Source: Nannocystis radixulma
GTDB lineage: Bacteria; Myxococcota_A; Polyangia; Nannocystales; Nannocystaceae
Length of the DNA stretch: 64,000 bases
Reading direction: 5' to 3'
Assembly (NCBI RefSeq): GCF_028369095.1
Contig: NZ_JAQNDN010000024.1
Location: forward strand, 757,253-821,252
Made by a program: the position numbers and the translations under genes
The notes under the pieces: model-generated
The model's input: only the letters and a program-made list of their open reading frames with translations
Database searches by the model: none
Told to the model about the DNA's origin: nothing
Part shown: positions 6,686-41,246 of the stretch, piece after piece
Layout: each line of letters opens with the position of its first letter
How positions within the stretch are numbered: position 1 is the stretch's first letter

Positions 6686-7200
6686 GCGCGCCGAACCGCG
6701 AGCGGACGATCGCGAGGCGAGCTCGAGAGCGAGACGCGCGGACGGTGTGGATGCAGAGCCGCGGAGCGGCGCGTCGCGAGGCACGGCTCTGAGACGCGGA
6801 TGGAGGCAGGCGACGGCGTCGGGGCGGTGCAGATCTGCCAGTGCGCGCGGCGTGATCCAGGTTCCCAGGTGAGCGGGTCGAATTGCGAGCGGGCGGTAGC
6901 GAGACGCGGAGCAGGCGAGGTCGCAGATCTGCTGGCAGTGAGCGCGATGGGATCGAGGCGCACAGGTGCGCGTGCCGAGATGCGAGCGGACGATAGGACG
7001 TCGTCGGGGCGGTGCAGAGCCAGGTTCCCAGGGAGTGCATCGCGACGCGGATGGAGATCTGCTGGCAGTGAGCGCGGTGTGATCGAGGTTCACAGGTGCG
7101 TGTACCGAGATGCGAGCGGACGGCAGCGGGACGCGGATGGAGATAGGTGACGTGGTCGATGGGGTGCAGATCTGCCAGTGAGCGCGGAGTCATCCAGGTC
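6665..7200. repeat. Degenerate ~100-130-bp tandem repeats, about four copies, seeded from the 3' end of glycine-rich gene 1
   Basis: The gene ends gtgatcagctggtgagcgcg. Copies of gcagatctgc(tgg)cagtg(a/c)gcgcgg…gatccaggt.cacaggtg.g occur at ~6829, 6923, 7052 and 7166. gagacgcggatggag recurs at 6791, 7044 and 7128. Confidence 0.65.
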
Positions 7201-7513
7201 CACAGGTGAGTGTGTCGTGGCCGGGCGGACGGCGGCGAGGTGCGAGGCGAAGGTCGGACTCGAGGTCGGTGCCGTGGACCGGCGAGGTGCAGCTTCGTGG
7301 TGGACCGCGACGACGTGCGGCCCCGTGGCGGCGGGGCCAAAAGCGGTGGCGAACGTCGTGCGGCGGCGAGTGGTGCCGTCTTGCGAGGATGTCTTTCGGA
7401 CATGTGCGAAGGGACATCCTCATGGAGAGCGGCGCGGCGCTGGTGATGCGGGACACAACGGGGTTTGCGTGCCTGCCTGCTGCGCATCATCCCTACAGGT
7501 CGCAGGGGGAACG

Positions 7514-8569
7514 ATGCCGATGGGACGCGAGGGCCGGTGGTGCACGTTGTCGGTGGTGTTGATGATCACCGCCGGCGGCTGCGACGAGGTCTCGGACACG
7601 TATCCCCCGCGGCCGGTGCCGGGCGCGCTCGCGGTCGCCGAGACGGGCGACGACGCCGAGGCAGACAAGGCGTCGGTGCGCGCGTGCGAGGCGGCCGCGC
7701 TCGACCTGTGCGGTTTGGAATGCGTCGACATCACGCTCGACGCGCGCCACTGCGGCGGCTGCGGCCGCGTCTGCGCCGGCACGTGCGCGGCGGGCTACTG
7801 CGAGGCGCCGTGCGAGCGCGGCCAGATCCGCTGCGACGGTCAATGTGTCGAGCGCACGCGCGTGACGCCCAGCGGCCGCGCCCGCGAGTTCGCGTTCACC
7901 GGCGCGCCGCAGACGTTCGTGGTGCCCGACTGCGTGTCGCGGATCACCATCGAGGCGTGGGGCGCCCAGGGCGGCGGCTCGCGCTGCTGCGACGGACCGG
8001 ATCAGGACGACGGCGGCCGCGGTGCTTACGTGCGCACCGAGCTCGAGGTCGAGCCGGGTGAGGCGCTTCAGATCGTGGTCGGCGGCCGCGGCGGGCTCGA
8101 GGGCGCGGCTGGTTCCAACGGCGGCGGCGTCGGAGGCGAGTTCGCGGGCGGCGGCGGCGGAGCCAGCGACGTGCGCCGCGGCGGGACGGAGCTCGACGAT
8201 CGGATCGTGGTCGCGGCGGGTGGCGGCGGCGGACAGTGCGGCTGCCCCGATCACGGCGAGGGCGGTCCGGGCGGTGTGTTCATCGGCGGCGCCGGCGTGG
8301 CGCTGTTGCCCGAGTGGCAGGCGGCGGGCGGCGGCACGCAGAGCGACGGCGGAACCGTGGGCTCCGAGCCGGGCGAGCCGGGCCTGTTCGGCAGCGGCGG
8401 CGGGGTCGGCCTGTACCACGTGGCAGGCGGGGGCGGCGGCTGGTTCGGCGGCGGCTCGGCCTACGCGGCAGGCGGAGGCGGCGGTTCGTCGTACCTCGGC
8501 GACGAGCCCGACAGCAGCGGGCTGCCCGGCGTGCGCGCGGGCGACGGAATGGTGACGATCCGCTGGTGA
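7514..8569 (+). CDS. Glycine-rich domain protein, paralogue of the 5837 gene, with a Cys-rich N-terminal region; lipoprotein
   Basis: Internal ATG at 7514 (MPMGREGRWCTLSVVLMITAGGCDE…). Motif FAFTGAPQTFVVPDCVSRITIEAWGAQGG followed by Gly runs, ending MVTIRW. Confidence 0.8.
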   Translation: MPMGREGRWCTLSVVLMITAGGCDEVSDTYPPRPVPGALAVAETGDDAEADKASVRACEAAALDLCGLECVDITLDARHCGGCGRVCAGTCAAGYCEAPCERGQIRCDGQCVERTRVTPSGRAREFAFTGAPQTFVVPDCVSRITIEAWGAQGGGSRCCDGPDQDDGGRGAYVRTELEVEPGEALQIVVGGRGGLEGAAGSNGGGVGGEFAGGGGGASDVRRGGTELDDRIVVAAGGGGGQCGCPDHGEGGPGGVFIGGAGVALLPEWQAAGGGTQSDGGTVGSEPGEPGLFGSGGGVGLYHVAGGGGGWFGGGSAYAAGGGGGSSYLGDEPDSSGLPGVRAGDGMVTIRW

Positions 8570-12131: not shown

Positions 12132-13478
12132 TCACGCGGTTTCTTGCGCAGGCTCTTGGCCGGCTTCGCCGTCGATCGGCCGGCCCGGGCCGAACGGTTC
12201 GACGGCTCGCGAGACTCGCGGCTCGTCGACGTGGACCGGGCCGTGCACGCGGCGCAGCTCGGGGTCGATGTGCTCGCGCACGACGCGGAACAGCCCGTTG
12301 TCGAACGACTTGCCGCTGGCCGGCGCGACGTGCTCGATGCGCTCGCGCAGACCTCGAGCCTGCATGACCTCGGCGCGGTGGGCACAGAACGGGTTGTTGC
12401 CGGGGCGCCCGAGCAGCGGCTCGCTGGCGGCGGTGCAGCCGGCCATGCAGGTCTCGGCGTAGTAGCACTCGCGACAGTAGCCCCACAGATCGTCGAGGGT
12501 GCGCCGGCGGATGTAGCCGAGCTGGTAGCTGTCGTCCCAGATCTCGCGGATCGATCGCTCGCGCCAGTTACCGCCGACGTTGAGCGGGCCGCCGAGGCTG
12601 GGGCAGTTCTTGATCCCGCCGTCGCTGTCGATGCCGAGGGTGTTGACGCCCGCGCCGCAGCCGCGCCAGTGCGTGCGCAGGGCGGCGCGCAGGCGGGTCT
12701 CGAGCGGGCCGAAGTAGCCGAGGCTGTTGGCCGGCCAGAAGCGGATGCCGAGCGCGTTGCAGCGGTCGATCACCCGCTCGAGCGTGACGAACAGCTCGGG
12801 CACCATGTACGGCTGCAGGATGAGCTCGGGGTGATCGGCGGCGTTGCCGTGGGCGACGGTGAGCTGCAATTGCCAGGCGCGGATGCCCTCGGCGGCCAGC
12901 AGCTCGAGCAGGTCGAGGAGCTCGTGGCGGGTGCGCTGGTTGATCTGACAGTTGCTGGCGATCGGCAGGCCGGCTGCGCGGGCCCGCCGGAGGGTCGAGA
13001 AGGCGGCGCGCCAGCTGCCGGGGACGCCGCGCAGGCCGTCGTGGGTGGCCTCGAGGCCGTCGATCGAGACGGCGAGGCTGGACATGCCGGCGTCGATCAT
13101 CGCCGCGAGTCGATCGTCGTCGAGGTTGAGGCCGCCGGTGGTGATCATGCACTTCATGCCGGCCTCGCGGATGGCCCGCACGACGAGGATGAAGTCGTTG
13201 CGCAGGTAGGCCTCGCCGCCGATCAGCACGACCTCGCCGCAGCCGAGGTCCTTGAGCTCGGCGACGACGCGCAGGCACTCGTCGGTGTCGAGCTCGTGCG
13301 GCCGGCGCTGGCCGGCTCGCGGCCCGCAGTGGACGCACTTCTGATCGCAGGCGAGGGTGAGCTCCCAGATCGCCCAGGTGGGGTTGCCCCGCGGGGCGCC
13401 GGGGCGGCCGTAGCGGTCGGCGGCCTGCGGCAATCCGGCGACGACGGGCAGGCGACGGCGGGCGTCGGCGAGCTTCAT
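12132..13478 (-). CDS. Radical SAM / SPASM-domain peptide-modifying enzyme, paralogue 1
   Basis: CDQKCVHCG is a CxxxCxxC cluster. The C-terminal Cys-rich SPASM region reads GYCRECYYAETCMAGC…NPFC. It is about 70% identical to the 33450..34769 protein. Confidence 0.9.
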   Translation of the reverse strand: MKLADARRRLPVVAGLPQAADRYGRPGAPRGNPTWAIWELTLACDQKCVHCGPRAGQRRPHELDTDECLRVVAELKDLGCGEVVLIGGEAYLRNDFILVVRAIREAGMKCMITTGGLNLDDDRLAAMIDAGMSSLAVSIDGLEATHDGLRGVPGSWRAAFSTLRRARAAGLPIASNCQINQRTRHELLDLLELLAAEGIRAWQLQLTVAHGNAADHPELILQPYMVPELFVTLERVIDRCNALGIRFWPANSLGYFGPLETRLRAALRTHWRGCGAGVNTLGIDSDGGIKNCPSLGGPLNVGGNWRERSIREIWDDSYQLGYIRRRTLDDLWGYCRECYYAETCMAGCTAASEPLLGRPGNNPFCAHRAEVMQARGLRERIEHVAPASGKSFDNGLFRVVREHIDPELRRVHGPVHVDEPRVSRAVEPFGPGRPIDGEAGQEPAQETA

Positions 13479-13484
13479 GCGCGG

Positions 13485-13952
13485 TTACAGGGTCTCGCCG
13501 GTGGTGGTGGCCTCGGTGTCGCCCTCGGTCGCGGCCGGTGGCGCGCCGGCGGACTCGGTCTCGAGCGCGGCGGCGTAGGCGGTGGTGACGTTGAACGAGT
13601 CCATCGAGTCGCTGGCGGAGGCGCTGCCGTCGGTGGTGCTCGAGGACGTGGTGGTCGAGGTCGTGCTGGTCGTCGTCGACGTCGTGGTCGAGGTCGGCTG
13701 GTCGGTGACGGCGGTGGTGTTCTGCGTCGTCTGCCCGTCGGTGGTCTGCGCGGTCGAGGTCGGGACGGTGGTCGACTCGGTGTCGTCCGGCTTCTCGCTG
13801 CAGCTCGCGCTCATCAGGCCGAGCACCACGCCGAGGAAACGCAGGCTGCCGGGACCCTCGACGCGCCGCTGCTCGGCGCCGCAGAACGGACAGGCGGACT
13901 CGTCGCGCCGGATGGCGCGGGCACACGCGGGACAGTCGATGAGGAGCGGCAT
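13485..13952 (-). CDS. Small protein with an N-terminal CxxC-X15-CxxC module (zinc-ribbon-like), one transmembrane / lipobox helix and a Thr/Ser-rich low-complexity tail; partner of rSAM 1
   Basis: Internal ATG at 13950-13952 (MPLLIDCPACARAIRRDESACPFCGA…FLGVVLGLMSASCSEK… then TSTTTSTTTS…). It ends 7 bp before the rSAM start on the same strand. Confidence 0.7.
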   Translation of the reverse strand: MPLLIDCPACARAIRRDESACPFCGAEQRRVEGPGSLRFLGVVLGLMSASCSEKPDDTESTTVPTSTAQTTDGQTTQNTTAVTDQPTSTTTSTTTSTTSTTTSSSTTDGSASASDSMDSFNVTTAYAAALETESAGAPPAATEGDTEATTTGETL

Positions 13953-14044
13953 GCCAGAGCACCGTATCAGAACTCGCCGGCGCCGGCGCCGGGCAGATCC
14001 GCACCCGGCCCGGCGGTCGGGGCGAGGTGGGGTCGGCGAGCCGC

Positions 14045-14112
14045 GCGGGTGCGCCAAGGGACATGTCGAATCAGGCATGTCGTGAAAGACATGCTGGCGA
14101 GGGCATGTCTGT
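14045..14112. repeat. Array of 14-bp-phased CATGTC repeats upstream of the peptide-rSAM operon
   Basis: gggacatgtcgaatca ggcatgtcgtgaaa gacatgctggcgag ggcatgtctgttc gaccatgtcagcg. The region is AT-richer than its surroundings. Confidence 0.6.
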
Positions 14113-14121
14113 TCGACCATG

Positions 14122-15459
14122 TCAGCGCGAGCCCAGCAGGGCGCGGCGCAGCACGCTGGGGTGGAACAGGGCGCTGCTCGGGCGCAGCAGGTGCAGCACC
14201 TCCATCATGCGCAGCTGGACGTCGGGCGAGCGGGTGGCGGCGCTGAAGATCCGGTCGACCAGGCGGTGCATGACCTTGAGGCCAGGTGACGGTTTGCCGG
14301 TGGTCCCGGGCCAGCGCAGATCGTCGCCGACGGCGGTCATGAAGGCGGCCTGGTTGCCGGCGGCGAGGCGCTTCTGAAAGCGCAGGCCGGGCGGCTGGCC
14401 GGGGCGGGCGCGCAGCTCGGCGTCGAGGTGGGTCGAGGCGACGGCGGCGACGCTCATGCCCTGGCCGTAGACGGGGTTGAGGGCGCAGGCGGCGTCGCCG
14501 AGCACGACGAAGCCGTGCGGCCAGCGGCGCAGGCGCTCGTAGTGGCGCAGGCGGTTCTCGGTCCGGCGATAGCCGTGGATGCTGCTGCACGGGGTGGCGC
14601 CGGCCAGCGCGTCGCGCAGCGCCGGGGTCCGCAGGCCGCCCGCGAATTCGAGGAAGCCGGCCTCGTCGGTCGGCGGGAAGGCGCCGCCGTAGCCGACCAG
14701 CGTGACGATGTGACGCCCGCCCTCGACCGCGTACACGACCCCGCCGCGCGGGTTCTGGCCCGGCTTGCCCATGATGTAGAGGACCTTCCAGTCGGGCCGC
14801 GCGCGCAGCTCGTAGAGGCGGGTGACGTAGCCGAGCTGGGCGTCGATGACGGTCTCGGCGGGCTCGGGGTAGCCGAGCGCGGCCAACCAGGTCGGGGCCT
14901 TCGAGGCGCGGCCGCTGGCGTCGACGACCAGGTCGGCGCGCAGGTCGTCGGCCGCGAGCTCGGGCGCGCCGGCGCGGCGGTGGACCTGCACGCCGACGAT
15001 CCGGTCGCCCGTGGCCTGCAGACCGGTAACCTCGTAACCGGCGTGGATGCGCACGCGATCGTCGGCGACGAGGCGCGCGCGCACGTTCCACTCGAGCAAG
15101 CCACGGGTGCAGGCGCGCGAGCGCAACGGCGAGGGCCCGCGCGGCATGAGGCCGAACGGGGTGTGCCACTCGACGTCGGCCAGCCAGTCGTACTCGTGCG
15201 CCCCCGCGGCCGCGAGCGCGTCGCCGAGGCCGGGGAACTGCTCGCTCAGGATCTGCCAGCCGCGCGTCAGCAGGACGTGGACGTGGTGGCTCTGCGGGGC
15301 ACCGGCGCGCGGCTCCGGTCCGCCCGGCAAGAGGTCGCGGTCGAGGACGGTGACGCGCTCGTAGTGACGCGTGAGCACGCGAGCGGCGAGGAGGCCGGCG
15401 ATCCCGCCGCCGATCACGAGCGCGCGCCGATTCGCCGGCGCGGAGCCTGATGTGGGCAT
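14122..15459 (-). CDS. FAD-dependent monooxygenase / oxidoreductase
   Basis: Internal ATG at 15457-15459. VIGGGIAGLLAARVL is a GxGxxG dinucleotide-binding fold, and the family-typical GDAAH-like motif LGDAACALNPVYGQG is present. Confidence 0.8.
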   Translation of the reverse strand: MPTSGSAPANRRALVIGGGIAGLLAARVLTRHYERVTVLDRDLLPGGPEPRAGAPQSHHVHVLLTRGWQILSEQFPGLGDALAAAGAHEYDWLADVEWHTPFGLMPRGPSPLRSRACTRGLLEWNVRARLVADDRVRIHAGYEVTGLQATGDRIVGVQVHRRAGAPELAADDLRADLVVDASGRASKAPTWLAALGYPEPAETVIDAQLGYVTRLYELRARPDWKVLYIMGKPGQNPRGGVVYAVEGGRHIVTLVGYGGAFPPTDEAGFLEFAGGLRTPALRDALAGATPCSSIHGYRRTENRLRHYERLRRWPHGFVVLGDAACALNPVYGQGMSVAAVASTHLDAELRARPGQPPGLRFQKRLAAGNQAAFMTAVGDDLRWPGTTGKPSPGLKVMHRLVDRIFSAATRSPDVQLRMMEVLHLLRPSSALFHPSVLRRALLGSR

Positions 15460-15928
15460 GGCGCAGTGATACGACAGCGCGGCCACGGCCGGAAGCGGGC
15501 GTCCCCGAGTACGGGCGCGCGATCGCCCGCGCGGGCGGTGAAGGCTCCGTCTGTCTGAAGAGACAGGTGTGTGGTTCGCCGCCGGCGGCCGCGGCGGAGC
15601 GAGCGGCCGACGTCACAATCACGGCAGGCCCCGCCTGAGCGGGGTGACAGGATTGGCGATCGGGAAATGCCCACACCGGCGTATACGAGCTTCCGCACGG
15701 GCATTCGCCTTGACCGATCGAAGGGTGGCGTGTATCCCCGAATTCGATGCTCCGGCGCGCCACCACCGCGACCACCACTACCACCCATCCGGGTGGGGTC
15801 GGTCGCGTGCGCGTGCGCTGAGAGAGTCGTCCACGCCCTGCGAAACCCCGCCCGAGCCGGCGGAGTTTCGCGCGTCTCGGTGGCGTCGCTCCGTCCGGTC
15901 GGCCCTTTGCCCCCAGGAGTCCGCCGCC

Positions 15929-30644: not shown

Positions 30645-30746
30645 GCGCGCCTGCGCGATAGCGACGCGCGGCCCCGGGGCTGCCTTCGCGGCGCGTCGGC
30701 TCGTATGCTCGGGGCCCGCGACGTCAGCCGTCGCGACAGGAGCCCC

Positions 30747-33254
30747 ATGAACGACCGAGGCCGTGAACGAGACCTTGTCCTCGCACCGAACGAGTTCGCC
30801 TTCATCCTGGACGAGACGAAGGGCAACATCAACGTCTACGTCGGGCCGCACAAGACGAGCCTCGCCAACACCGACGCGCCGGTGGTGTTCGACGCCGGCA
30901 GCAAGCGGTTCGAACGGCGCCAGCTCGACGGCGCGATCCAGGCGCTGTCGATCGCGCCCGAGGGCTGGTACCTGGTGCTGAAGAACCCGGCGACCGACAA
31001 GAGCCACCCGCGGACCGGCGCGCTCAACAACTTGCCGTCGCTCGACACCGGCCGCAAGGTCAACATCCCCGGGCCGGCCTCGTTCGCGCTGTGGCCCGGC
31101 CAGATGGTCAGGGTCATCCAGGGCCACCACCTGCGCTCCAATCAATACCTGCTGGTCCGCGTCTACGACGAGGAGGGCGCCAAGGCCAACTGGAAGAACG
31201 CGGTGCTGCGCATGCGGCCCGAGGCGGCGCCCGACGAGGCCGAGGCCGCGGCCAGGGTGGTGCGGCCGCCCGATCTGACGATGGGCACGCTGCTGATCAC
31301 CCGCGGCACCGAGGTCGCGTTCTACATCCCGCCGACGGGCGTCGAGGTGGTGCCCGACGTCGACGGCAACTACGTGCGCGAGGCGATCACGCTCGAGCGA
31401 CTCGAGTACTGCATCCTGCTCGACGAGAACGGCAACAAGCGCTACATCCAGGGCCCCGACGTGGTGTTTCCGCAGCCGACGGAGACCTTCGTGGCGATCC
31501 GCGGCGCCCGCAAGTTCCGCGCGCTCGAGCTCAACGAGAACACCGGCCTCTACATCAAGGTCATCGCGCCGTACGAGGAGAACGGGGTCCGCTACAAGGT
31601 CGGCGACGAGCTGTTCATCACCGGCAAGGACACGATGATCTACCTGCCGCGGCCGGAGCACGCGATCATCAAGTACGGCGATCAGGAGCGTCACTACGCG
31701 GTGGCGATCCCGGCCGGCGAGGCGCGCTACGTGCTCGACCGCAACAAGGGCACGATCACGCTCAAGCGCGGGCCGGCGATCTATCTCCCCGATCCGCGCA
31801 CGGAGCTGATCATCCGCCGCGTCCTCGATCCGAAGACCGTGTCGCTGTGGTTCCCCGGCAACCGCGAGGCGTACGACTACAACCGCCGCATGGCCCAGCA
31901 GAACGCGCCGCAGATCGCGGCGGAGTTCGCGGCGGTGGCGTCGGTGCCGGTGCAGTCGGCCCGGGCCTCGGCGGCGCCCAAGGCGGCCCCCGCGGCGGCT
32001 CCCGGCGGTCCGCCGCCGCCTCCGCCGCCGCCGCCGTCGGAGTTCGCCGGCGACGACTTCACGCGCAGCCAGACCTTCACTGGCCCGCGCACGATCGTGC
32101 TCGACACCCGCTACGAGGGCGCGGTCGCCATCGACGTGTGGACCGGCTACGCGGTGCTGGTGGTGTCGAAGACCGGCGAGCGCAAGGTCGTCGCCGGGCC
32201 GCACACGCACCTGCTCGAGTACGACGAGACGTTGCAGGTGCTCGAGCTGTCGACCGGCACGCCGAAGAGCGAGCAGAACCTGTACAAGACGGTGTACCTG
32301 CGGGTGCTCAACAACAAGGTGTCCGACCAGGTCGAGGTCGAGACCCGCGACCTGGTGCGCGTGCAGCTGCAGCTCAGCTACCGCGTCAACTTCGAGGGCG
32401 ACCCGAACAAGTGGTTCGAGGTCGAGAATTACGTCAAGTTCCTGACCGACCACCTGCGCTCGCTGATCCGCGCGGCGGTCAAGCGCCACGGCATCGAGCA
32501 GTTCTACGCCGACTCGGTGGCGATCCTGCGCGACGTGATCCTCGGGACGACGGGCGAGGACGGCAAGCGCCCCGGTCGTCGCTTCGAGGAGAACGGCATG
32601 CGCGTGTACGACGTCGAGGTCCTCGAGGTCACGATCGGCGACGAGGCGATCGCCGAGCTGCTGGTCCAGGCGCAGCACGCCGCGGTCCAGCAGACGCTGT
32701 CGCTGGCGGCCGAGCAGCGCCGGCTCGAGATGGTGCGCCAGACCGAGGGCGTGACGCAGCAGGTCGCCGAGGCCAAGTCGGCGACGCTGCAGCAGGCGAT
32801 CGCGCTGCGTACCCGCGAGGGCGAGCAGCAGCAGCGCTATCAGCTGGCCGAGCTGGCGGCCAAGCTCGACCTGCACGAGCGGCAACAGCAGGCGCTGCTG
32901 GCCGAGCAGGAGCGGGTGGGGGCGATCCACGGGGCCGACCTCGGCCGCCGTCAGGCCACGGCCCAGCTCGATCTGTCGATCCAGCAGCAGCAGCTCGACC
33001 AGCGCCTGCGCGAGCTGCAGGCCGAGGTCATGGCGGTGGTCGAGAAGGCGCGGGCGGTCTCGCCCGACCTCATCGCCGCGCTGCAGGCGTTCGGCGACCG
33101 GGCCCTGGCCGAGAAGATGGCGGAGTCGATGGCGCCGCTGGCGATCCTCGGCGGAGAGAGCGTGGCCGAGGTGCTCGGCCGCCTGCTCCGCGGCTCTCCG
33201 CTGGCGCGCCTGCTGCCGGCCGGCGAGGCGAAGACCGAGACACCGAAGTCGTGA
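30747..33254 (+). CDS. Major vault protein (MVP) homologue
   Basis: Internal ATG at 30747 preceded by gacaggagcc. The N-terminal MVP repeat units resemble FAFILDETKGNINVYVGPHKT, YLVLKN…, YIKVIAPYEENGVRYKVGDELFI and so on. These are followed by a shoulder-like region and a long coiled-coil-like tail (QQQLDQRLRELQAEV…). Confidence 0.8.
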   Translation: MNDRGRERDLVLAPNEFAFILDETKGNINVYVGPHKTSLANTDAPVVFDAGSKRFERRQLDGAIQALSIAPEGWYLVLKNPATDKSHPRTGALNNLPSLDTGRKVNIPGPASFALWPGQMVRVIQGHHLRSNQYLLVRVYDEEGAKANWKNAVLRMRPEAAPDEAEAAARVVRPPDLTMGTLLITRGTEVAFYIPPTGVEVVPDVDGNYVREAITLERLEYCILLDENGNKRYIQGPDVVFPQPTETFVAIRGARKFRALELNENTGLYIKVIAPYEENGVRYKVGDELFITGKDTMIYLPRPEHAIIKYGDQERHYAVAIPAGEARYVLDRNKGTITLKRGPAIYLPDPRTELIIRRVLDPKTVSLWFPGNREAYDYNRRMAQQNAPQIAAEFAAVASVPVQSARASAAPKAAPAAAPGGPPPPPPPPPSEFAGDDFTRSQTFTGPRTIVLDTRYEGAVAIDVWTGYAVLVVSKTGERKVVAGPHTHLLEYDETLQVLELSTGTPKSEQNLYKTVYLRVLNNKVSDQVEVETRDLVRVQLQLSYRVNFEGDPNKWFEVENYVKFLTDHLRSLIRAAVKRHGIEQFYADSVAILRDVILGTTGEDGKRPGRRFEENGMRVYDVEVLEVTIGDEAIAELLVQAQHAAVQQTLSLAAEQRRLEMVRQTEGVTQQVAEAKSATLQQAIALRTREGEQQQRYQLAELAAKLDLHERQQQALLAEQERVGAIHGADLGRRQATAQLDLSIQQQQLDQRLRELQAEVMAVVEKARAVSPDLIAALQAFGDRALAEKMAESMAPLAILGGESVAEVLGRLLRGSPLARLLPAGEAKTETPKS

Positions 33255-33420
33255 GGCCTGGGCCGCGCGTCCGCGCGACGGCGCGGGCGGGCTGGCCATC
33301 GTGACAGTGCGAGCCCGGCGGCGATGTGGGGGCTCGCCGCCACCGATGGCGCGACCGGGACAGCGAAGTCGTGAGGCTTCATCCTCGCGTCCGCGCGCCC
33401 TGGGATCGGCGTGCGGGCGC
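33241..33420. repeat. The 3' end of the MVP gene, including its stop codon, is duplicated ~122 bp downstream
   Basis: accgaagtcgtgaggcctgggccgcgcgtccgcgcg at the MVP stop matches gcgaagtcgtgaggcttcatcctcgcgtccgcgcg at ~33364. Confidence 0.6.
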
Positions 33421-33449
33421 CGGCCGCATCGGCGTGTTAGGCTGCGCGC

Positions 33450-34769
33450 ATGAGCTTAAGTGATGTGCGTCGTCGTCTGCCCGTGGTGGCCTCGCTGCCC
33501 GCACCCGACAACCGGTGGATGACGAACCCGGCCCGACGCGAGGCCAAGGCGCCGCGCTGGGCGGTGTGGGAGCTGACCCTCGCGTGTGACCAGCACTGCG
33601 CCCATTGCGGCCCGCGAGCAGGCCAGCGGCGGCCCAACGAGCTCACGACCGAGGAGTGCCTGCAGGTGGTGCGCGAGCTGAAGGAGCTCGGCTGCGGCGA
33701 GGTGGTGCTGATCGGCGGCGAGGCCTATCTGCGCAACGACTTCATCCTGATCATCCGCGCCATCCGCGAGGCCGGGATGGCGTGCACGATGACGACCGGC
33801 GGCCTCAACCTCAACGAGGAGCGGGCCGCGGCGATGATCGAGGCCGGGATCGGCAGCGTGACGTTCTCGATCGACGGCCTGCAGGCCACGCACGATCGCC
33901 TGCGCGGGGTGCCGGGCAGCTGGGAGCGCGCGTTCGCGGCGATGCGGCGGATCCGCGATGCCGGCGGCCGGATCGCCAGCAACACCCAGATCAACGCGCT
34001 GACCCGCACCGAGCTGCTGCCGCTGTTCGAGCTGCTGGCCGACGAGGGCATCCATTCGTGGCAGCTGCAGATCACGGTGCCGCACGGCAACGCGGCCGAC
34101 CACCCGGAGATCCTGCTGCAGCCGCACATGTTCCTCGACATCTTCAAGACGCTCGAGCAAGTGCTCGACCGCTGCGAAGCCCGCGGAGTGCGGCTGTGGC
34201 CGGGCAACAACCTCGGCTACTTCGGCCCGCTCGAGCGGCGCATGCGGAACTCCCAGCGCAAGCACTGGCGCGGCTGCACGGCCGGGGTGTCGGTGATGGG
34301 CATCGAGAGCGACGGCTCGATCAAGAACTGCCCGAGCCTCGGCGGCGGCAACAACATCGGCGGCAACTGGCGCGTGCACGGGGTCAAGAAGGTGTGGGAA
34401 GAGTCGTATCAGCTCGGCTACATCCGCGCGCGCACGGTCGACGACCTGTGGGGCTATTGCCGCGAATGCTACTACGCCGAGACTTGCATGGCCGGCTGCA
34501 CGGCCGCGGCCGAGCCGCTGCTCGGGCGCCCGGGCAACAATCCCTTCTGCCACCACCGGGCACTGATGATGGATCGGGCAGGACTGCGCGAGCGCATCGA
34601 GCAGATCCGCGGGGCGGGCGGGCAGCCGTTCGACAACGGGCTGTTCCGGGTGATCCGCGAACACGCCGATCCGGCGCTGCGGGAGCTGCACGGGCCGGTC
34701 GCGGTCGAGGAGCCGCGGGTGTCGCGGGCCGAGGAGCCTTTCGGGGCGGGGCGGACGCTCGTGCTCTGA
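33450..34769 (+). CDS. Radical SAM / SPASM-domain peptide-modifying enzyme, paralogue 2
   Basis: CDQHCAHCG cluster and a SPASM C-terminus. It is collinear with the 12132..13478 protein along its whole length. Confidence 0.9.
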   Translation: MSLSDVRRRLPVVASLPAPDNRWMTNPARREAKAPRWAVWELTLACDQHCAHCGPRAGQRRPNELTTEECLQVVRELKELGCGEVVLIGGEAYLRNDFILIIRAIREAGMACTMTTGGLNLNEERAAAMIEAGIGSVTFSIDGLQATHDRLRGVPGSWERAFAAMRRIRDAGGRIASNTQINALTRTELLPLFELLADEGIHSWQLQITVPHGNAADHPEILLQPHMFLDIFKTLEQVLDRCEARGVRLWPGNNLGYFGPLERRMRNSQRKHWRGCTAGVSVMGIESDGSIKNCPSLGGGNNIGGNWRVHGVKKVWEESYQLGYIRARTVDDLWGYCRECYYAETCMAGCTAAAEPLLGRPGNNPFCHHRALMMDRAGLRERIEQIRGAGGQPFDNGLFRVIREHADPALRELHGPVAVEEPRVSRAEEPFGAGRTLVL

Positions 34770-34794
34770 TTGGTTCGGCGCGGGGCCGGGTGTG

Positions 34795-35070
34795 GCGCTT
34801 CGCGAATTGCCGACTGCGCCTCGCGGGGGGTCCGGGGAAGGGTCGGCGACGAGTTCAGCGTCTGGATGGACGCTCGTTCCTCGCGCCCATCCTGCCTCGT
34901 ATTCGTCGCCGACCCTTCCCCGGACCCCTGGCACGGCTGCAGCCGTGAGAGGCCGACGCGGCGTCGTCGGCTTCGATGGAGGATGTCCTGAGGGACAGGT
35001 CATGAGCGCCTGTTCGACGGCCAGGGCTGGCCGCCGAACAGACGCATTCTCGGGTCATTCACGCCGCGTC
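34795..35070. repeat. Copy A of a ~200-bp repeat (inverted copy B at 41065-41246); it carries an extra ~97-bp palindromic insertion
   Basis: 34795-34838 aligns with the reverse complement of 41202-41246, and 34935-35070 aligns with the reverse complement of 41065-41200. Identity is about 85%. Confidence 0.75.
34828..34927. other. Perfect 24-bp inverted repeat forming a hairpin with a ~52-nt loop, between the convergent rSAM 2 and partner genes; candidate bidirectional terminator or MITE-like insertion
   Basis: gggtccggggaagggtcggcgacg at 34828-34851 pairs exactly with cgtcgccgacccttccccggaccc at 34904-34927. Copy B contains only one arm. Confidence 0.6.
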
Positions 35071-35229
35071 ATTCCCAGGCGGGGACGCTCGCGCGGGGAG
35101 CCGCATCGACGCAGGTCGACGGGCATGCCGAGACGGGCATTATAGACAATAATATGATGTGTCCGTCAGGACAGGTCCGGACAGACATGCGGGCCGCGAG
35201 GGCGTTCGCGGCGGATCAGGGGCGCGAGC

Positions 35230-35823
35230 TCAACCGCCGGTGGTGCCGGTGCTGGTGGTCTCACCGGTGGTGCCGGTGCTCGTGCTGGTGCTCTCGGGGC
35301 CGCCGGTGCCGGTGGTCGTCCAGCCCTCGTCGGGGCCGGCGTAGGTCGAGGCGTCCGTGGTACTCCAGTTCGTCGTGGTCGTGGTGGTGGAGGGGCCGGC
35401 CGTGGTGGTCGTGGTGGTGTCCCAGTCGGTGGTCCACCCCTCGTCGGGACCGGCGTAGGTGGAGCCGTCGCCCGAGGGATTCGGCGGATCGACGGTCGTG
35501 TCGCCGACGGTGTTCTCGCCGCCAGAGGTGGTGGTGAGGGGGCCGTTGGAGGTCGAGGTGTCGCCGGAGGTCGAGGTGTCGCCGGCGGTCTCGGAGTCGG
35601 CCGCGGCCTCGGTGCCGGACTCGCTCGGATCGGTGGTCGCCGTGTCGCCGGGTTCCTTGTCGAGCTGGCAGGCGGCACCCATCACACCGAGGCTCGCGCT
35701 CAGGGCGATTGCCGTCCACGAGGGGCTGAACGTGTGACGCTGAGTGTGACCGCAGAACGGGCAACTGGCGTCGGACGCTCGGAATAGACAGGCGCACTCA
35801 GGGCAATCGATAAGAGAAGACAT
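35230..35823 (-). CDS. Paralogue of the 13485..13952 protein: an N-terminal CxxC…CxxC module, a transmembrane/lipobox helix, and a Thr/Ser/Gly-rich tail with DEGWTT repeats
   Basis: Internal ATG at 35821-35823 (MSSLIDCPECACLFRASDASCPFCGH…TAIALSASLGVMGAACQLDK… then TSTSGDTSTS… and STYAGPDEGWTT twice). Confidence 0.7.
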   Translation of the reverse strand: MSSLIDCPECACLFRASDASCPFCGHTQRHTFSPSWTAIALSASLGVMGAACQLDKEPGDTATTDPSESGTEAAADSETAGDTSTSGDTSTSNGPLTTTSGGENTVGDTTVDPPNPSGDGSTYAGPDEGWTTDWDTTTTTTAGPSTTTTTTNWSTTDASTYAGPDEGWTTTGTGGPESTSTSTGTTGETTSTGTTGG

Positions 35824-35895
35824 GGGCGGACCATAGCAGACACGGCCCGCCGGTGACCAGAAAAACAGCCGGTCCGCGGGCGGACCCGCCGTGCG

Positions 35896-38340
35896 GTGGG
35901 ATACACTCGCGCGGTGTCTTTCGCGCTCGCGCTGGCGCTCGTGCTGTTGTCGGCGAGCCTTGTCGGGCTGGTGGCGCTGCACCGTGAAGCGCTGCGGCGG
36001 GCGCTGCTGCGTGCGGTCGACCCGAGACCGCTGGCGCTGTTCCGGATCGCGTTCGGTTGTTGTCTGCTGGCGACAACGGTCGAGATCGCGCCGCTGCTCG
36101 ACTATCTATTCTCCGACGAGGGCCTGCTGCCGCGTGCCGTGGTGCCGGAGCTCATGGGGCGCGGGGCGACGGTCGGCTTCGGCGACGGCGTGCGCGAGCC
36201 CGCGGGCCCGCGCGACCTGGCGGCGCTGGTCGAGTTCGTGATCAGCGGGCGCTGGTCGCCGCTTTACTTCGGGGACAGCCCGACGGCGGTGCGGCTGCAT
36301 TTCGCGGGGCTGGTGGTCGCGGCACTCGGGCTGACGCTGGGCTGGCGCACCCGCGTCAGCACGATCCTCTGCTGGCTGCTGTACGCCGGGCTGCTGCGCC
36401 GCGGCGACGCCCACTGGGGCGGCGAGCAGGTGTTCTGCGCGTTCCTGTTCCTGCTGATGTGGTCGCGCTGCGGGGCGGCGTTCAGCGTCGACAACTGGCG
36501 GCGCTGCCGGGCTCTGCGACGACGTGGCTTTTTGAGCATGTCCTCGGGACCAGGCGCCGGGGCGGGCCTGGCTCCGTCGCCGGCGGCGCCGCGGGGGCTG
36601 GCAGCGATCTACCGCCGGATCCCCGCGTGGCCGCAGGCGCTGATCGCCGCCCAGCTGGCGCTGTGCTACGCCGTCAACGGCTGGGCCAAGTCGGGCCCGA
36701 CGTGGCGCTCGGGCGACGCGCTGCTGCTGGTGTTGTCGCGCGACACATATGTCCGTTGGGACATGTCCGCGGCGATCGCCGCGGTCGGGCCGTGGCCGCT
36801 GCGCCTGGCCAGCTGGGGCGTGGAATGGTGGGAGCGGCTGTTCCCGCTGGTGCTGGTCGGGCTGGCGCTGCGGGCCGTGGCGCGCAGCGGAGCGCCGGCG
36901 CTGCAGGGGGCCGCGAGCGCGGGGGCGCGGCTGTGTTGGGCCGGGATCGCGGTGGCGGCGGGGCTGGCCGTGGCTGTCCCTCAGGACCTGGTGGAAAAGT
37001 CAGGTGATCCCGGCGGCTTCGAGCGCGCGGCGACGCTGGCGGTGCTGGCGGCGATCACCGCGGCGGTGGCGATCGCGGGGCCGCGGGCGGCGGCGGTGGG
37101 TCGGCGCCTGGCCGCGGGACCGCTGGCGCCGCGCTGGTGGCTGGGGTTCGGGGCGCTGTTCCACCTCGCCAACCACGCGCTGCTGGCCGTGGGAGCGTTC
37201 GCGCCGGCGACGCTGGCGGCTTATCTGGTGTGCGGGGCGGGTCCGTGGGCGATTGCGATGTTGCAGCGAGCGCTGGGCGGGCTGGCACGCCTGGGCTTAC
37301 CTGTCCCCGAGCACCTGCGCCGAGAGACAGCCATCGCGGCGGAGGATCCGTCGCTGCCGCACCTGCACCGCGACGCGGCGGCGCTGCCGGGGTGGGCGAT
37401 CGCGGCCGCCGGCGGGGTGGTGCTGGCGGGCGGACTGGTGGGGCTGGCCGCGGGCGCCGGGCCGCGGGCGTGGCACGCGGCCTGGCTGGCCGCAGGGACA
37501 GGTCTGACGATCGTCGGCTGGAGGGTCGCGCGGCGCCGTCGCAGCGAGACGACGGCGCTGGTCGAGCCGTGGGCGCACGGTCCGGCGGGTCGCCTGGCGG
37601 CCGGGGGGCTCGTGGCGTACCACGTGGTCGCGCTGCTGGTGTGGCAGCTGCCGGCGTGGTCGAGCCTGCCGTGGCGCGGGCCCGTGCGGGCGCTGGTCGG
37701 GCCGTGGATCGAGCTCAGCTACACCAGCCAGGTGTGGTCGATGTTCGCGCCCAATCCCCCGCGCGATCAGATGCTGGTGCGGACGACGGTGGTCGACGCG
37801 GCCGGGGTCCGCCACCGCTTCGGTGAGGGGCCGCAGCGCGCGGACGATCTGCCGCTGCCGCATCCGTGGCACGATCGCTGGCGCAAGATCGGCGACAATC
37901 TGCTCGGGCAGCGCGAGCGCATGTCGCTGTGGCACGTGCGCTACCTGTGCCGCCGCTGGGCGCTCGAGCACGCGGGCGAGCCGGCCCGCGAGGCGCGGCT
38001 CGAGGGGCTGCGCGCGCCGTTCGCTCCGCCCGGCAGCGAGCGCCAGGAGCACTTCGCGGCGCACGTCGAGACGCGGGTGCTGGCGCAGCTGAACTGCGCG
38101 GAGGAGCCGTTCGCCCAGCTGGCCCCCGAGGTGCGCGCGCGCCACGGGCTGCCGCCCGCGCCGCCCGGATCGCTGCGCTTCGCGTGGGCGCCGGAGCGGG
38201 CGGCGACGTGGGCCGAACGACGCACGCGTCGCGATCCGTTGGCGCCCTTGTGGCCGCTGGCGGCGCTGGGGCTGCTGGCGGCGCTGGCGAGGTGGGCGCG
38301 CGAGGATCGGCGGGGACGTGCACCGGCGGGTGATTCGTAG
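35896..38340 (+). CDS. HTTM (vitamin-K-dependent gamma-carboxylase-like) domain polytopic membrane protein with a C-terminal DUF5819/SdpB-like region
   Basis: N-terminal HTTM pattern (LALFRIAFGCCLL…), many transmembrane helices, and the C-terminal block VWSMFAPNPPRDQMLVRTTVVDAAG…WRKIGDNL. Confidence 0.65.
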   Translation: MGYTRAVSFALALALVLLSASLVGLVALHREALRRALLRAVDPRPLALFRIAFGCCLLATTVEIAPLLDYLFSDEGLLPRAVVPELMGRGATVGFGDGVREPAGPRDLAALVEFVISGRWSPLYFGDSPTAVRLHFAGLVVAALGLTLGWRTRVSTILCWLLYAGLLRRGDAHWGGEQVFCAFLFLLMWSRCGAAFSVDNWRRCRALRRRGFLSMSSGPGAGAGLAPSPAAPRGLAAIYRRIPAWPQALIAAQLALCYAVNGWAKSGPTWRSGDALLLVLSRDTYVRWDMSAAIAAVGPWPLRLASWGVEWWERLFPLVLVGLALRAVARSGAPALQGAASAGARLCWAGIAVAAGLAVAVPQDLVEKSGDPGGFERAATLAVLAAITAAVAIAGPRAAAVGRRLAAGPLAPRWWLGFGALFHLANHALLAVGAFAPATLAAYLVCGAGPWAIAMLQRALGGLARLGLPVPEHLRRETAIAAEDPSLPHLHRDAAALPGWAIAAAGGVVLAGGLVGLAAGAGPRAWHAAWLAAGTGLTIVGWRVARRRRSETTALVEPWAHGPAGRLAAGGLVAYHVVALLVWQLPAWSSLPWRGPVRALVGPWIELSYTSQVWSMFAPNPPRDQMLVRTTVVDAAGVRHRFGEGPQRADDLPLPHPWHDRWRKIGDNLLGQRERMSLWHVRYLCRRWALEHAGEPAREARLEGLRAPFAPPGSERQEHFAAHVETRVLAQLNCAEEPFAQLAPEVRARHGLPPAPPGSLRFAWAPERAATWAERRTRRDPLAPLWPLAALGLLAALARWAREDRRGRAPAGDS

Positions 38341-38480
38341 GACATGTCGCTACGGACAGGAGTCGCAGCGCGGCCGGGCGCGGAGGGCGCAGAATATGTG
38401 CCTGAATGGACATGTTCATATATTCATGGCTTGTGGCAATCTGGATAAGACATGACCCAATGGACATGTGAATATGTTCA
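38340..38480. repeat. AT-rich array of 14-bp-phased GGACATGT repeats upstream of the ParA-like/TPR gene
   Basis: gacatgtcgctacggacagg … ctgaatggacatgttcatat attcatggcttgtg … gacatgacccaat ggacatgtgaatat gttcatgtccgaat ggacactcccgaag. Confidence 0.6.
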
Positions 38481-38623
38481 TGTCCGAATGGACACTCCCG
38501 AAGAGACGGTCGGACTCGTTGCAGCCAGGCAGACCCGCGGGGCGCGACGGGTGAAACCGCACGCCGACGGGGGCACGGGCGGCGTGCGGCGCGGGGCGCA
38601 CGCGGGTAGAAGGGGTCGCAGGC

Positions 38624-40360
38624 ATGCAGGCGGCGCCGTTCATCACGTTCTGGTCGGCTCACGGCGGCGTGGGTCGGACGCTGGCAGTGCTGGGCGTCGG
38701 GCGCGTGCTGGCGGCGCGTGGGCTGCGGGTGTTGCTCGTCGACGCCGATCTCGAGGCGCCGGGACTGTCGCGGCTGGTCGGCGGCGACGGCGACGGCCTC
38801 GTGGAGCTGATGACGGCGGGGGTGCCGGAAGCCGCGGCGATGGCAGGGTGCTGTGCGACGATCGCGGGGACGCTGCGGGTGCTGCGGGCGGGCCGGCTCG
38901 ACGCAGCGTACTGGGATCGCCTGGACGCGTGGCCGCAGGGCGAACGCGCGGCGGCGTTGCACGAGCTGCGGCGCCGGATCGACACTGCCGAGATCGCTGA
39001 CGTGGTGCTGGTCGACGGCCCGCCGGGGCTGTCGCGGGCGACGGAGCGGGTGGTGCGGGCGCTCGCCGATCGCGTGGTGGTGTTGACGGCGATCAATCAG
39101 CAGCAGGTCGCGGGCACGGCCGAGCTGCTGCGCCGCTGCCGCGCGGCGGAGCTGCCGGCGCGGGTGGTGTACGGCCCGCTGCCGCTCGGCGAGGACGAGC
39201 TGACGGCGGCGCGCGAGGAGGCGGCGCGCGTGGCGTTCGCGGACGAGGCGCTCGCGCTGTCGGGGCCGATCCCGCAGCACCCGCGGCTGGCGCTTCACGA
39301 ACAGGCGAGCGAGCGCGGGCCGGTGCACGCGGCCCACGTGGCGCTGGCGCGCGAGCTGCTGGTCGACGCGGGGTTCGAGGTGCGGGCGCTCCTCCGCGGC
39401 GTCGAGGCGGCGATCGAGGCACAGGCGTGGGCCCGCGCGCTGGCGCTATTGCGGGTGGCGATCGTCATCGAGCCGACGGGGGCGTCGCTGGGGTCGTTGT
39501 TCCCGCGGTTGCGCGAACACATGACGCCGGCTGCCGCGAGCGACCCGTTGTTCGCGTTGCTCGCGGAGGCGCTGCCGGTCGACTCACCGCGGCTGGCCAG
39601 CTTCGCCACCGCGCTGCATTCGGCCGGCAACCCGCTGGCGCGCCGTTTTTATGAGAAGTTCCTGGCCGACGCGCCGGACCACGCGGACATGCTCGGCAAC
39701 TTCGCGGCGTTCCTGAGCGACGTGTGCGGCGAGCACGACCTCGCCGAGGCGTACTACGAGCAGGCGCTGGCGGCCGCACCGGACGACGCCGATCACCTCG
39801 GCAACTTCGCCAACTTCCAGGCGCTGGTCCGCGGCGATCGGGCGCGGGCCGATGCCTGCTACCAGGCGACGATCGCGGCCGCGCCGGACGATGCGCATCA
39901 CCTCGGCAACTACGCCAACTTCCGCGTTGCGACGTTCGCCGACGTCGCCGGCGCCGAGGCGCTGTACCGCCGCGCGCTGGCGGCCGATCCGGAGGACGCC
40001 AACTTGCTCGGCAACTTCGCCAGGTTGCTGTTCGCGGAGGGACGCGGCGCGGAGGGGCGCGAGCTGCTGGCGCGGGCGCTGGAATTGTCGGAGGCCGGGT
40101 CGCCGCTGCGCTGCGAGCTGTGCTTCTACGCGTACGCGCACGCGCCCGAGGTCGTGCCCGACGCGCTGGCGCAGCTGCGCGAGATGCTGGCGAGCGGGGT
40201 GCGCTCTCCCGGCTGGGAGCTGGTAGCGAACGTGGCCCGGGTCCGCCTGGACGGCCACGCGGAGCCGGAGTTGCTGGCAACACTGGCCCGCGTGATCGCG
40301 GACGAGGCTCCGCTGGCGGCGCTCGACGCCTTCGTGGCGTGGGTGCGGTCGAGCGAGTGA
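38624..40360 (+). CDS. Fusion of a degenerate ParA/MinD-like P-loop domain to TPR repeats
   Basis: FWSAHGGVGRTLAVLGVGRVLAARGLRVLLVDADLEAPGL resembles a deviant Walker A in which Arg replaces the usual Lys. The C-terminal half has repeated DADHLGNFANF…Y…AL units, read as TPR repeats. Confidence 0.6.
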   Translation: MQAAPFITFWSAHGGVGRTLAVLGVGRVLAARGLRVLLVDADLEAPGLSRLVGGDGDGLVELMTAGVPEAAAMAGCCATIAGTLRVLRAGRLDAAYWDRLDAWPQGERAAALHELRRRIDTAEIADVVLVDGPPGLSRATERVVRALADRVVVLTAINQQQVAGTAELLRRCRAAELPARVVYGPLPLGEDELTAAREEAARVAFADEALALSGPIPQHPRLALHEQASERGPVHAAHVALARELLVDAGFEVRALLRGVEAAIEAQAWARALALLRVAIVIEPTGASLGSLFPRLREHMTPAAASDPLFALLAEALPVDSPRLASFATALHSAGNPLARRFYEKFLADAPDHADMLGNFAAFLSDVCGEHDLAEAYYEQALAAAPDDADHLGNFANFQALVRGDRARADACYQATIAAAPDDAHHLGNYANFRVATFADVAGAEALYRRALAADPEDANLLGNFARLLFAEGRGAEGRELLARALELSEAGSPLRCELCFYAYAHAPEVVPDALAQLREMLASGVRSPGWELVANVARVRLDGHAEPELLATLARVIADEAPLAALDAFVAWVRSSE

Positions 40361-41064: not shown

Positions 41065-41246
41065 GACACGCCGTCATGACCTGAGAAAGCGTCTGGTCGG
41101 CGGCCAGCCCTGGCCGTCGACCAGGCGCTGGCAACCTGCTCCAAAGGACATCCTCCATCGGAGTCGAGGACGGCGTGTCGGCCTCTCACGGCTGCAGCCT
41201 TCCCCGGACCCCCCGCGAGGCGCAGTCGGCAATTCGCGAAGCGAGC
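41065..41246. repeat. Copy B (inverted) of the ~200-bp repeat
   Basis: Reverse-complement alignment to 34795-35070; see copy A. Confidence 0.75.

Follow-up and report, generated by a model that had tools for sequence, protein, structure and literature searches.

A Nannocystis membrane protein built like human vitamin-K-dependent carboxylase is linked to a radical SAM enzyme and a lipoprotein-like precursor

The product of the gene at 35896-38340 of the window, the 64,000-nucleotide stretch of Nannocystis radixulma DNA that was analysed, is a bacterial membrane enzyme whose build resembles that of human vitamin-K-dependent carboxylase (GGCX). Together with a radical SAM/SPASM (rSAM) gene and a small precursor-like gene, this HTTM gene probably forms a previously undescribed two-compartment protein-modification system, since it is found beside the other two in a single clade of the Nannocystaceae. 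The precursor and HTTM genes are divergent, with 72 bp between their starts, and the rSAM gene lies upstream, its end 1.13 kb from the HTTM start. The earlier note had placed the HTTM gene divergently beside a CxxC-TM gene and about 1 kb from the rSAM/SPASM gene, and both positions hold. The genes and the region between the divergent starts are as follows.

33450-34769, plus strand: radical SAM/SPASM maturase, 439 aa (Pfam Radical_SAM, 89.4 bits)
35230-35823, minus strand: precursor-like gene, 197 aa, start taken as MSSLIDCPEC
35824-35895, no strand: divergent intergenic region between the precursor and HTTM starts, 72 bp, with the block ACCAGAAAA conserved in four Nannocystis genomes
35896-38340, plus strand: HTTM / vitamin-K-carboxylase-like polytopic membrane protein, 814 aa; the ORF fits these coordinates exactly

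The intergenic region is presumed to be a control region common to the precursor and HTTM genes. A sigma-70-like promoter scan of 33000-39000 detected zero promoters.

The Pfam HTTM model (PF05090) matches aa 131-204 only of the membrane protein, with a score of 44.6 bits where the gathering cut-off is 27.7 (E 1.7e-11), in agreement with the HTTM-domain membrane protein that had been proposed. The earlier note had named the lack of such a hit as evidence against it. The same annotation is precomputed for most of its homologues. The top homologue in the database protein comparison, from Nannocystis sp. SCPEA4, is 97% identical. A near-identical database protein has 808 aa rather than 814, so translation may begin a few codons further on. 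The protein contains the following segments.

36286-36507, plus strand: segment matched by the Pfam HTTM model, aa 131-204, containing AHWGGEQ (aa 172-178)
36688-36705, plus strand: K265...W270 (WAKSGPTW), placed by HMM alignment on GGCX K218 and W223
37162-37200, plus strand: H423...F435, aligned to GGCX H287...F299
37573-38235, plus strand: soluble C-terminal domain at about aa 560-780, flanked by the last two hydrophobic helices (AF2 secondary structure)
37729-37758, plus strand: QxWSMFAPNP motif of the C-terminal domain, conserved among homologues

The C-terminal domain also carries two conserved Cys, C685 and C734. By analogy with the lumenal domain of GGCX it would be periplasmic; the topology is modelled on GGCX because a crude hydropathy and charge analysis is not decisive. 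Besides PF05090, Pfam detects neither DUF5819 nor VKGC-lumenal nor any other domain in the protein. The C-terminal 255 aa scanned alone give zero Pfam domains at E<=1, and the C-terminal domain has zero sequence matches in the PDB at E<=10. Zero NCBIfam families match the HTTM protein or the precursor.

GGCX is the only significant structural match of the HTTM protein in Foldseek. Both GGCX (PDB 9bum, 9wfc, 9l20) and the window protein combine an HTTM transmembrane core with a large extracytoplasmic C-terminal domain, and the alignments span about 700 columns, reaching into that domain. The protein has a GGCX-like three-dimensional fold by Foldseek, with low global TM-scores (0.27-0.39) and a sequence identity of 12-17%. 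Compared with GGCX it has one more helix at the N-terminus and, in this clade, one more at the C-terminus. In GGCX, K218 is the general base, W223 the stacking Trp and F299 the Phe that stacks with and traps CO2 (PMC12647623). Their equivalents K265, W270 and F435 are kept in at least 95% of 90 HTTM paralogues, and H423, the counterpart of H287, is conserved too. The mapping is a weak, sequence-based profile alignment (stretches of 2-9 bits each) and not a structural superposition. The substrate-carboxylate site is different: AHWGGEQ aligns to GGCX W157-S161, and of the GGCX residues that bind the Glu carboxylate, N159, H160 and Y395 (PMC12647623), the pair N159/H160 is not matched and is replaced by G176/E177 in the HMM alignment. 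A Glu or Asp substrate is therefore not supported by that site. E177, in place of H160, is invariant across a 54-sequence alignment, and clade-specific residues cluster there. By fold and active-site residues, the closest characterised relative is GGCX and not demonstrably SdpB.

The rSAM and precursor genes are the core pair, and HTTM is a clade-specific third partner. HTTM adjoins the precursor gene in 13/13 loci of its orthologous clade, with the rSAM gene also adjacent in 12/13. The earlier note had named in advance a neighbourhood not conserved elsewhere as evidence against it; the neighbourhood is conserved. Linkage of the three genes is retained while flanking genes and gene orientations vary among the clade loci, which matches the prediction for a functional protein-maturation locus and supports the one proposed here. 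At one further locus (L082), HTTM and rSAM are present and the precursor is absent within 6 kb. KGGVGR-ATPase/TPR, GFA and MVP-like neighbours were considered as module parts but discarded, since their conservation does not extend beyond the genus Nannocystis (L001-L003).

The adjacency could also reflect co-regulation or inherited synteny only, with the HTTM substrate elsewhere, such as a membrane lipid, a quinone or another envelope protein, as is presumably the case for its many paralogues. Nannocystaceae have a greatly enlarged HTTM family, with 339 confirmed relatives and several members per genome, most of them beside unrelated genes. About 80 paralogue loci there have neither rSAM nor precursor, as this account would expect. 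What surrounds them varies (EamA, AdoMet decarboxylase-like, CLC channel, P-type ATPase, kinases) with no theme in common, the recurrent neighbours being generic kinases, transporters or lineage-specific synteny. The same account is helped by rSAM+precursor pairs that lack HTTM, such as the one at 12132-13952 of the window; HTTM is accordingly dispensable for the core pathway. Other clades of the pair have no HTTM, or a PMT_2 membrane protein instead. However, the linkage persists where all other neighbours are lost, where the trio is internally inverted (L006) and where the rSAM gene is separated (L053 and L086). Among the roughly 80 paralogue loci, 3 further rSAM-adjacent HTTM genes sit on other tree branches, against a rough chance expectation of about 0.4 that assumes about 10 rSAM paralogues per 12-Mb genome. 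The precursor motif class also co-varies with the presence of the HTTM clade. We consider adjacency by synteny or co-regulation alone unlikely.

Conserved linkage of the trio fits equally well with an SdpB-like factor for processing, export or chaperoning, which would cleave, fold or release the precursor without adding a carboxyl group and without quinol-driven base chemistry. In Bacillus subtilis, maturation of SdpC requires both SdpA and SdpB, and SdpB is not known to have carboxylase activity. The loss of the GGCX Glu-binding residues in HTTM also suits such a factor. On the other hand, conservation of the base Lys, the stacking Trp and the CO2-stacking Phe across the 90 paralogues is hard to square with a non-catalytic role, and a GGCX-like C-terminal domain is fused to the HTTM protein. 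The SdpA/DUF5819-type partner and an SdpC-like gene are absent by Pfam from the HTTM protein and its neighbours, including any match to the DUF5819 HMM that had been put forward as a check. A factor of this kind therefore seems improbable to us. The analogy to SdpB drawn in the earlier note survives in part: an HTTM protein does lie beside an exported-protein gene, as in the SdpB/SdpA/SdpC system of B. subtilis and the HTTM-DUF5819 pairs, but the partner and the SdpC-like gene are missing. Its toxin-maturation aspect is not borne out, as nothing at the locus points to a toxin and the small protein is an acidic Thr/Ser-rich lipoprotein-like precursor. In DUF5819 systems the second domain is encoded as a protein of its own, which is predicted to mimic the lumenal part of GGCX (bioRxiv 10.64898/2026.08.19.745780), whereas in the 814-aa window protein it is fused at the C-terminus.

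The CxxC-TM gene product is best read from its sequence as the substrate, a lipoprotein-like precursor with repeated Tyr motifs. It consists of a zinc-ribbon-like leader, a hydrophobic helix ending in the lipobox-like GAAC, and a 146-aa acidic Thr/Ser-rich tail. Motif search locates three elements in the gene.

35752-35805, minus strand: CPECACLFRASDASCPFC, zinc-ribbon-like leader motif, with weak, sub-threshold Pfam zinc-ribbon matches
35428-35469, minus strand: DGSTYAGPDEGWTT, motif copy 1, in a 42-nt direct repeat of 88% identity
35314-35355, minus strand: DASTYAGPDEGWTT, motif copy 2, in the same 42-nt direct repeat of 88% identity

The mature part of the window precursor has only two Tyr, both within the repeat motifs. 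Clade precursors share the CxxC...CPFCG leader, the lipobox and a very acidic tail with 2-3 T-Y-[AG]-G-P-D-E motifs. The residue after the Tyr is Ala in the window, L001-L005, L032, L053 and L079, and Gly in L006, L007, L074, L080, L083-L085 and L087. In 16 of 16 precursors the residue at -1 is small and a single Cys follows the leader (for example GAAC, LVAC, TLSC and LAGC). With a signal-peptide-like helix and a lipobox with invariant Cys, they have the features of lipoproteins and are predicted to be lipidated. ECF sigma genes near two paralogous loci had suggested that the CxxC protein might be an anti-sigma factor. This idea was set aside, since the ECF sigma association does not hold consistently and conservation lies in the Tyr motif of the exported tail.

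The rSAM protein is by far nearest to NCBIfam TIGR04103, nif11-class peptide rSAM maturase 3 (430.8 bits over full length, below the cut-off of 725), and is also related to TIGR03913 (412.9 bits, below the cut-off of 591.75); the next family scores 155 bits. InterPro IPR026482 probably corresponds to TIGR04103. PlpX is assigned to IPR026482 (PMC11002830). The repeated X-Y-[G/A]-x-P sites of the precursors resemble the PlpA splice tag ...LYGLP... of spliceotide systems. Canonical splicease sites are XYG, with Gly after Tyr (PMC10533398), whereas the window precursor has Ala there. The locus departs from the PlpX/RhaX systems in other respects: their precursors have a Nif11/NHLP leader, unlike the zinc-ribbon-like leader and lipobox here, and the rSAM protein, at 431 against 725 bits, scores under the family cut-off. 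No PlpY/RRE gene is seen at the locus, and the literature searched contains no spliceotide system with an HTTM partner.

Whether HTTM is the third component of a conserved three-gene maturation module, in which rSAM action is followed by a quinol/O2-driven periplasmic modification, we judge to be evenly balanced. We infer its membrane topology, step order, cofactor, target residue and reaction type, and the domain, fold, conservation of the K218/W223/F299 equivalents, gene linkage and precursor sequence features are observed. In such a pathway, the small neighbour gene would produce a precursor in which the zinc-ribbon-like N-terminus, lying in the cytoplasm, acts with the hydrophobic helix as leader and lipoprotein signal peptide. 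Before export, the cytoplasmic rSAM/SPASM enzyme would then alter the conserved Tyr in the T-Y-[AG]-G-P motifs, perhaps by splicease-type tyramine excision, given that its nearest curated families are TIGR04103 and TIGR03913. Export and probable lipidation at the single Cys would follow. At the periplasmic face, the HTTM active site, placed as in GGCX, would use reduced menaquinone and O2 to generate a strong base that modifies the acidic tail. The likeliest reaction would be carboxylation of Asp/Glu after the motif (P-D-E), and its product a surface lipoprotein with Gla-like metal binding. Taken in full, with a splicease-like rSAM editing Tyr in the cytoplasm and a menaquinone-dependent GGCX-type enzyme then carboxylating Asp/Glu on the lipoprotein in the periplasm, this scheme is a tentative one with only a small share of our confidence. 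Among the window genes scanned with Pfam, which lie before 41 kb, there is no VKOR-like recycling gene.

Alternatively, HTTM could use its vitamin-K-type strong base on the rSAM-modified motif for chemistry that is not carboxylation. Splicease products are labile in configuration at the former alpha-carbon (PMC10533398), and the invariant E177 at the GGCX H160 position, with clade-specific residues clustered around it, would suit a changed reaction. Conservation of the Phe299 equivalent, however, argues for retained CO2 use, and the literature searched offers no precedent, so that we regard such a reaction as highly unlikely.

Like GGCX, the HTTM protein in the carboxylation scheme would work on secreted proteins at the non-cytoplasmic side of the membrane. 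The putative substrate here has neither propeptide nor Gla domain, unlike the GGCX system, and the radical-SAM linkage of the gene is likewise a feature of the HTTM locus and not of GGCX. We know of no bacterial vitamin-K-dependent carboxylase relative with a defined substrate besides MloH, which acts on a non-ribosomal intermediate. In PMC12186529 and PMC12647623, MloH is given as a bacterial VKDC orthologue of malonomycin biosynthesis (citing Law et al. 2018) that carboxylates an aspartyl residue, a GGCX-like enzyme with an HTTM region fused to a second domain and encoded in a biosynthetic cluster. By these descriptions it resembles the window protein. The literature searched contains no published description of an HTTM/rSAM/precursor system, and links HTTM to radical SAM or RiPPs in one unrelated co-mention only.

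If the scheme is true, it would to our knowledge be the first vitamin-K-type carboxylation on a bacterial ribosomally made protein, as well as the first case of an HTTM enzyme that acts in series with a radical-SAM maturase. Gla-type chemistry would then reach bacterial surface proteins and be joined to radical-SAM peptide editing, a link relevant to RiPP discovery and protein engineering. The HTTM clade is an unusually clean case for testing, with a candidate substrate 72 bp away and a short conserved motif. Paralogous rSAM+precursor cassettes without HTTM provide natural controls, one of them in the same genome region.

The HTTM-domain gene that an earlier note placed beside a radical SAM (rSAM) cassette is borne out as an exact reading frame, in a window with a G+C content of about 72–75%. 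The note also described it as divergent from a CxxC-TM gene and near an rSAM/SPASM gene, and the gene order agrees on both points.

33450–34769, + strand: radical SAM/SPASM gene, upstream of the HTTM gene (Pfam Radical_SAM, 89.4 bits)
35230–35823, − strand: precursor ("CxxC-TM") gene, product starting MSSLIDCPEC, lying between the other two genes with a 72-bp gap to the HTTM start
35896–38340, + strand: HTTM gene, 814 aa

The HTTM protein matches Pfam HTTM (PF05090) above the cut-off (44.6 bits, cut-off 27.7, E 1.7e-11), only at aa 131–204, and shares 97% identity with a hypothetical protein from Nannocystis sp. SCPEA4. It matches no NCBIfam model. The suggested DUF5819 domain did not materialize; neither it nor any other additional domain is detected in the protein, even in a separate scan of the C-terminal 255 aa (E ≤ 1).

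The HTTM domain family is already known. The AlphaFold2 model, made with an alignment of 54 homologues, is confident, with a mean pLDDT of 89.5 and a pTM of 0.92. Residues 1–590 form a mostly helical membrane core, residues about 590–780 a soluble domain of mixed alpha/beta structure, and residues 785–813 the last helix. Chains of human vitamin-K-dependent carboxylase (GGCX) are the sole matches of the HTTM-family profile among PDB sequences; four collinear stretches align, at E about 1e-4. In this weak profile alignment, which compares sequences and not superposed coordinates, K218, W223, H287 and F299 of GGCX correspond to K265, W270, H423 and F435. According to a 2025 cryo-EM study of GGCX (PMC12647623), K218 acts as general base and deprotonates vitamin K hydroquinone, with W223 stacked on K218 and F299 on CO2. 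Lys265, Trp270 and Phe435 are kept in at least 95% of 90 HTTM paralogues, and so are the QxWxMFxP motif (612–619) and two cysteines of the soluble domain, C685 and C734. In contrast, N159 and H160, which hold the substrate Glu carboxylate in GGCX, align to G176 and E177. Residues H173, G176 and Q178 are among the positions setting the rSAM-linked clade apart from the paralogues. The protein thus appears, from its aligned residues, to keep the quinol-activating and CO2-handling machinery with an altered substrate pocket. We have little doubt that it is a GGCX-fold HTTM enzyme.

One architecture is common to 16 precursor-family members from different loci. A leader of 45–53 aa carries CxxC(xC)...CP[FH]C[GH], with weak, sub-threshold zinc-ribbon matches. 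It is followed by a hydrophobic helix with a lipobox-like end, x-x-[AGS]-C, and by a tail of 61–146 aa, for which the lipobox Cys is the sole Cys. The tail contains 7–33 Asp and Glu versus 0–4 Lys and Arg, and about 22–48% Thr and Ser. Almost all tail tyrosines lie within a conserved Y-[AG]-[GA] motif. The window precursor, which matches no NCBIfam model, contains (D)[GA]STYAGPDEGWTT twice, and a 42-nt direct repeat encodes the two copies. With this leader, lipobox and acidic tail with Tyr motifs, the CxxC-TM product looks like a substrate rather than an enzyme partner.

The window rSAM has a 100% identical match in Nannocystis sp. SCPEA4. Among curated families it scores highest against TIGR04103 (nif11-class peptide rSAM maturase 3, 430.8 bits), to which the splicease PlpX probably belongs, and TIGR03913 (GDL-motif peptide maturase, 412.9 bits); the next family scores 155 bits. 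Both alignments are full-length, yet under the equivalog cut-offs, and the cut-off of no NCBIfam family is reached. A review places PlpX in InterPro IPR026482 (PMC11002830). The sites from which spliceases cut out tyramine have the form X-Y-G, for example ...RPLYGLPI (PMC10533398, PMC11626197). The X-Y-[G/A]-x-P sites of the precursor look similar, although the window precursor has Y-A instead of Y-G and its rSAM falls short of the family threshold.

A scan of GTDB species representatives gives 339 HTTM relatives, often several per genome. Searching the full library with the HTTM profile gives 170 clusters (50% identity) at E ≤ 1e-30 and 6174 at E ≤ 1e-3. All 78 kept HTTM loci belong to records labelled Nannocystaceae, Nannocystis, Enhygromyxa, Myxococcales/Myxococcota, Polyangia or unclassified (delta)proteobacterial MAGs. 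Neighbour-joining analysis of 90 full-length paralogues places the window protein in one well-separated clade with those of comparison loci L001–L007 and L032. Once L053, L085 and L087 are added, the orthologous clade comprises 13 loci with 45–81% identity. The precursor gene adjoins the HTTM gene in all 13, and the rSAM gene is also present in 12. The exception is MAG HK-STAS-MYXO-17, where precursor and HTTM remain side by side (L053; the HTTM frame is broken, possibly by assembly error) and an rSAM orthologue, 79% identical, lies alone on a different contig (L086). In L006 the HTTM gene is on one strand and the other two on the opposite strand; L004, L005 and L007 have additional precursor copies. 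The MVP-like, KGGVGR-ATPase/TPR, GFA and DUF1588-like neighbours are missing from clade loci outside the genus Nannocystis, and the identities of rSAM and HTTM drop together across the clade. Such linkage and co-variation are what functional coupling predicts. Judged by gene order, HTTM is most tightly tied to the precursor, and a functional tie to both precursor and rSAM is probable. The circumstantial support that the earlier note saw for a protein-maturation locus is upheld by this retention of the trio while other flanking genes are lost.

HTTM is not a universal partner of rSAM and precursor. Paralogues of the rSAM with 63–70% identity pair with the same precursor type, HTTM being absent, in L079, L080, L083, L084 and a second cassette of the window.

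12132–13478, − strand: second rSAM/SPASM gene, 70% identical to the first
13485–13952, − strand: second precursor gene, MPLLIDCPACARAIRRDESACPFCG..., lipobox SASC, one TTAYAAALETES site
14122–15486, − strand: FAD-dependent oxidoreductase/halogenase-like gene, directly upstream of the second cassette

The region 12132–15486 (−) contains no HTTM gene. In HTTM's stead, L079 (5970–9864) has a PMT_2 membrane protein and L080 (6476–10979) a thioredoxin-like (WCGPC) lipoprotein, suggestive of a modular family in which exported Thr/Ser-rich lipoproteins receive different kinds of periplasmic tailoring. The precursor motif is T-Y-[AG]-G-[PA]-[DAT]-[EDSA] in the HTTM clade, where position +4 or +5 is acidic in almost all copies, and [YDA]-Y-[AG]-G-[PA]-P where HTTM is absent; by these patterns the motif class goes with the partner. 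At L081 (rSAM 72%), both precursor and HTTM are missing within 6 kb. Conversely, rSAM and precursor are both absent from about 80 HTTM paralogue loci, whose neighbours share no common theme. Three HTTM genes on other tree branches are rSAM-adjacent (L074, L082, L009); about 0.4 would be expected by chance, a rough estimate and not a computed statistic, assuming about 10 rSAM paralogues per 12-Mb genome. In L074 a CxxC...CPHCG precursor with EPAYGVP and EPLYGALD lies between the two genes. Tandem HTTM paralogue pairs, each about 900–1000 aa, occur in many Nannocystaceae genomes (L008, L010–L016, L038, L057; e.g. L008, 2536–8217), and their conserved surroundings include an EamA transporter and an AdoMet-decarboxylase-like gene.

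The rSAM needs the cytoplasm, and in GGCX the active site is on the non-cytoplasmic side of the membrane. The precursor tail is predicted to end outside the cytoplasm, and C685 and C734 of HTTM fit a periplasmic location. Because of these locations, the simplest order would have rSAM acting first on precursor Tyr, followed by export and lipidation, with HTTM acting last on the exported tail. The rSAM step could be a splicease-type tyramine excision. HTTM might perform vitamin-K-type base generation, here from menaquinol, with CO2 capture, since the K218, W223 and F299 equivalents are kept; its obvious target would be Asp/Glu after the Tyr motif. MloH, a bacterial orthologue, carboxylates an aspartyl residue (cited in PMC12186529 and PMC12647623). 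Given MloH and the altered N159/H160 site, there is room for another acceptor or reaction, and carboxylation of the precursor is a tentative and rather doubtful assignment. The literature searched gave no description of the conserved trio, of the zinc-ribbon-leader lipoprotein-like precursor family or of an HTTM enzyme paired with a radical-SAM maturase.

Several other features of the window were observed. A non-coding element of roughly 170–260 nt forms an inverted pair (34796–35058 and 41076–41243; 46 nt at 100% and 132 nt at 85% complementarity) flanking the 6-kb block precursor-HTTM-KGGVGR/TPR-GFA. Copy A has an additional internal hairpin of about 60 nt. The window has no further copies, and 87 comparison loci have no exact one. 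The pair may represent a MITE/REP-like element or an inversion substrate. At 38405–38490, AT-rich repeats AATGGACATGT[TG][CG]A[TA]ATATTCATG (2–3 copies), unusual at about 73% genome G+C, sit within the 283 bp that precede the KGGVGR-motif AAA ATPase/TPR gene (38624–40360) and may be a regulator binding site. The gene at 30705–33254 (+) encodes a bacterial homologue of eukaryotic major vault protein (MVP_shoulder 105.5 bits, Vault_3, Band_7/SPFH), 93–94% identical in three other Nannocystis genomes, which exceeds the conservation of its neighbours. At 5690–8569 (+), the products of two adjacent genes score 76.7 and 82.8 bits against PF12810, the ALK/LTK glycine-rich domain family, which takes its name from animal receptor kinases.
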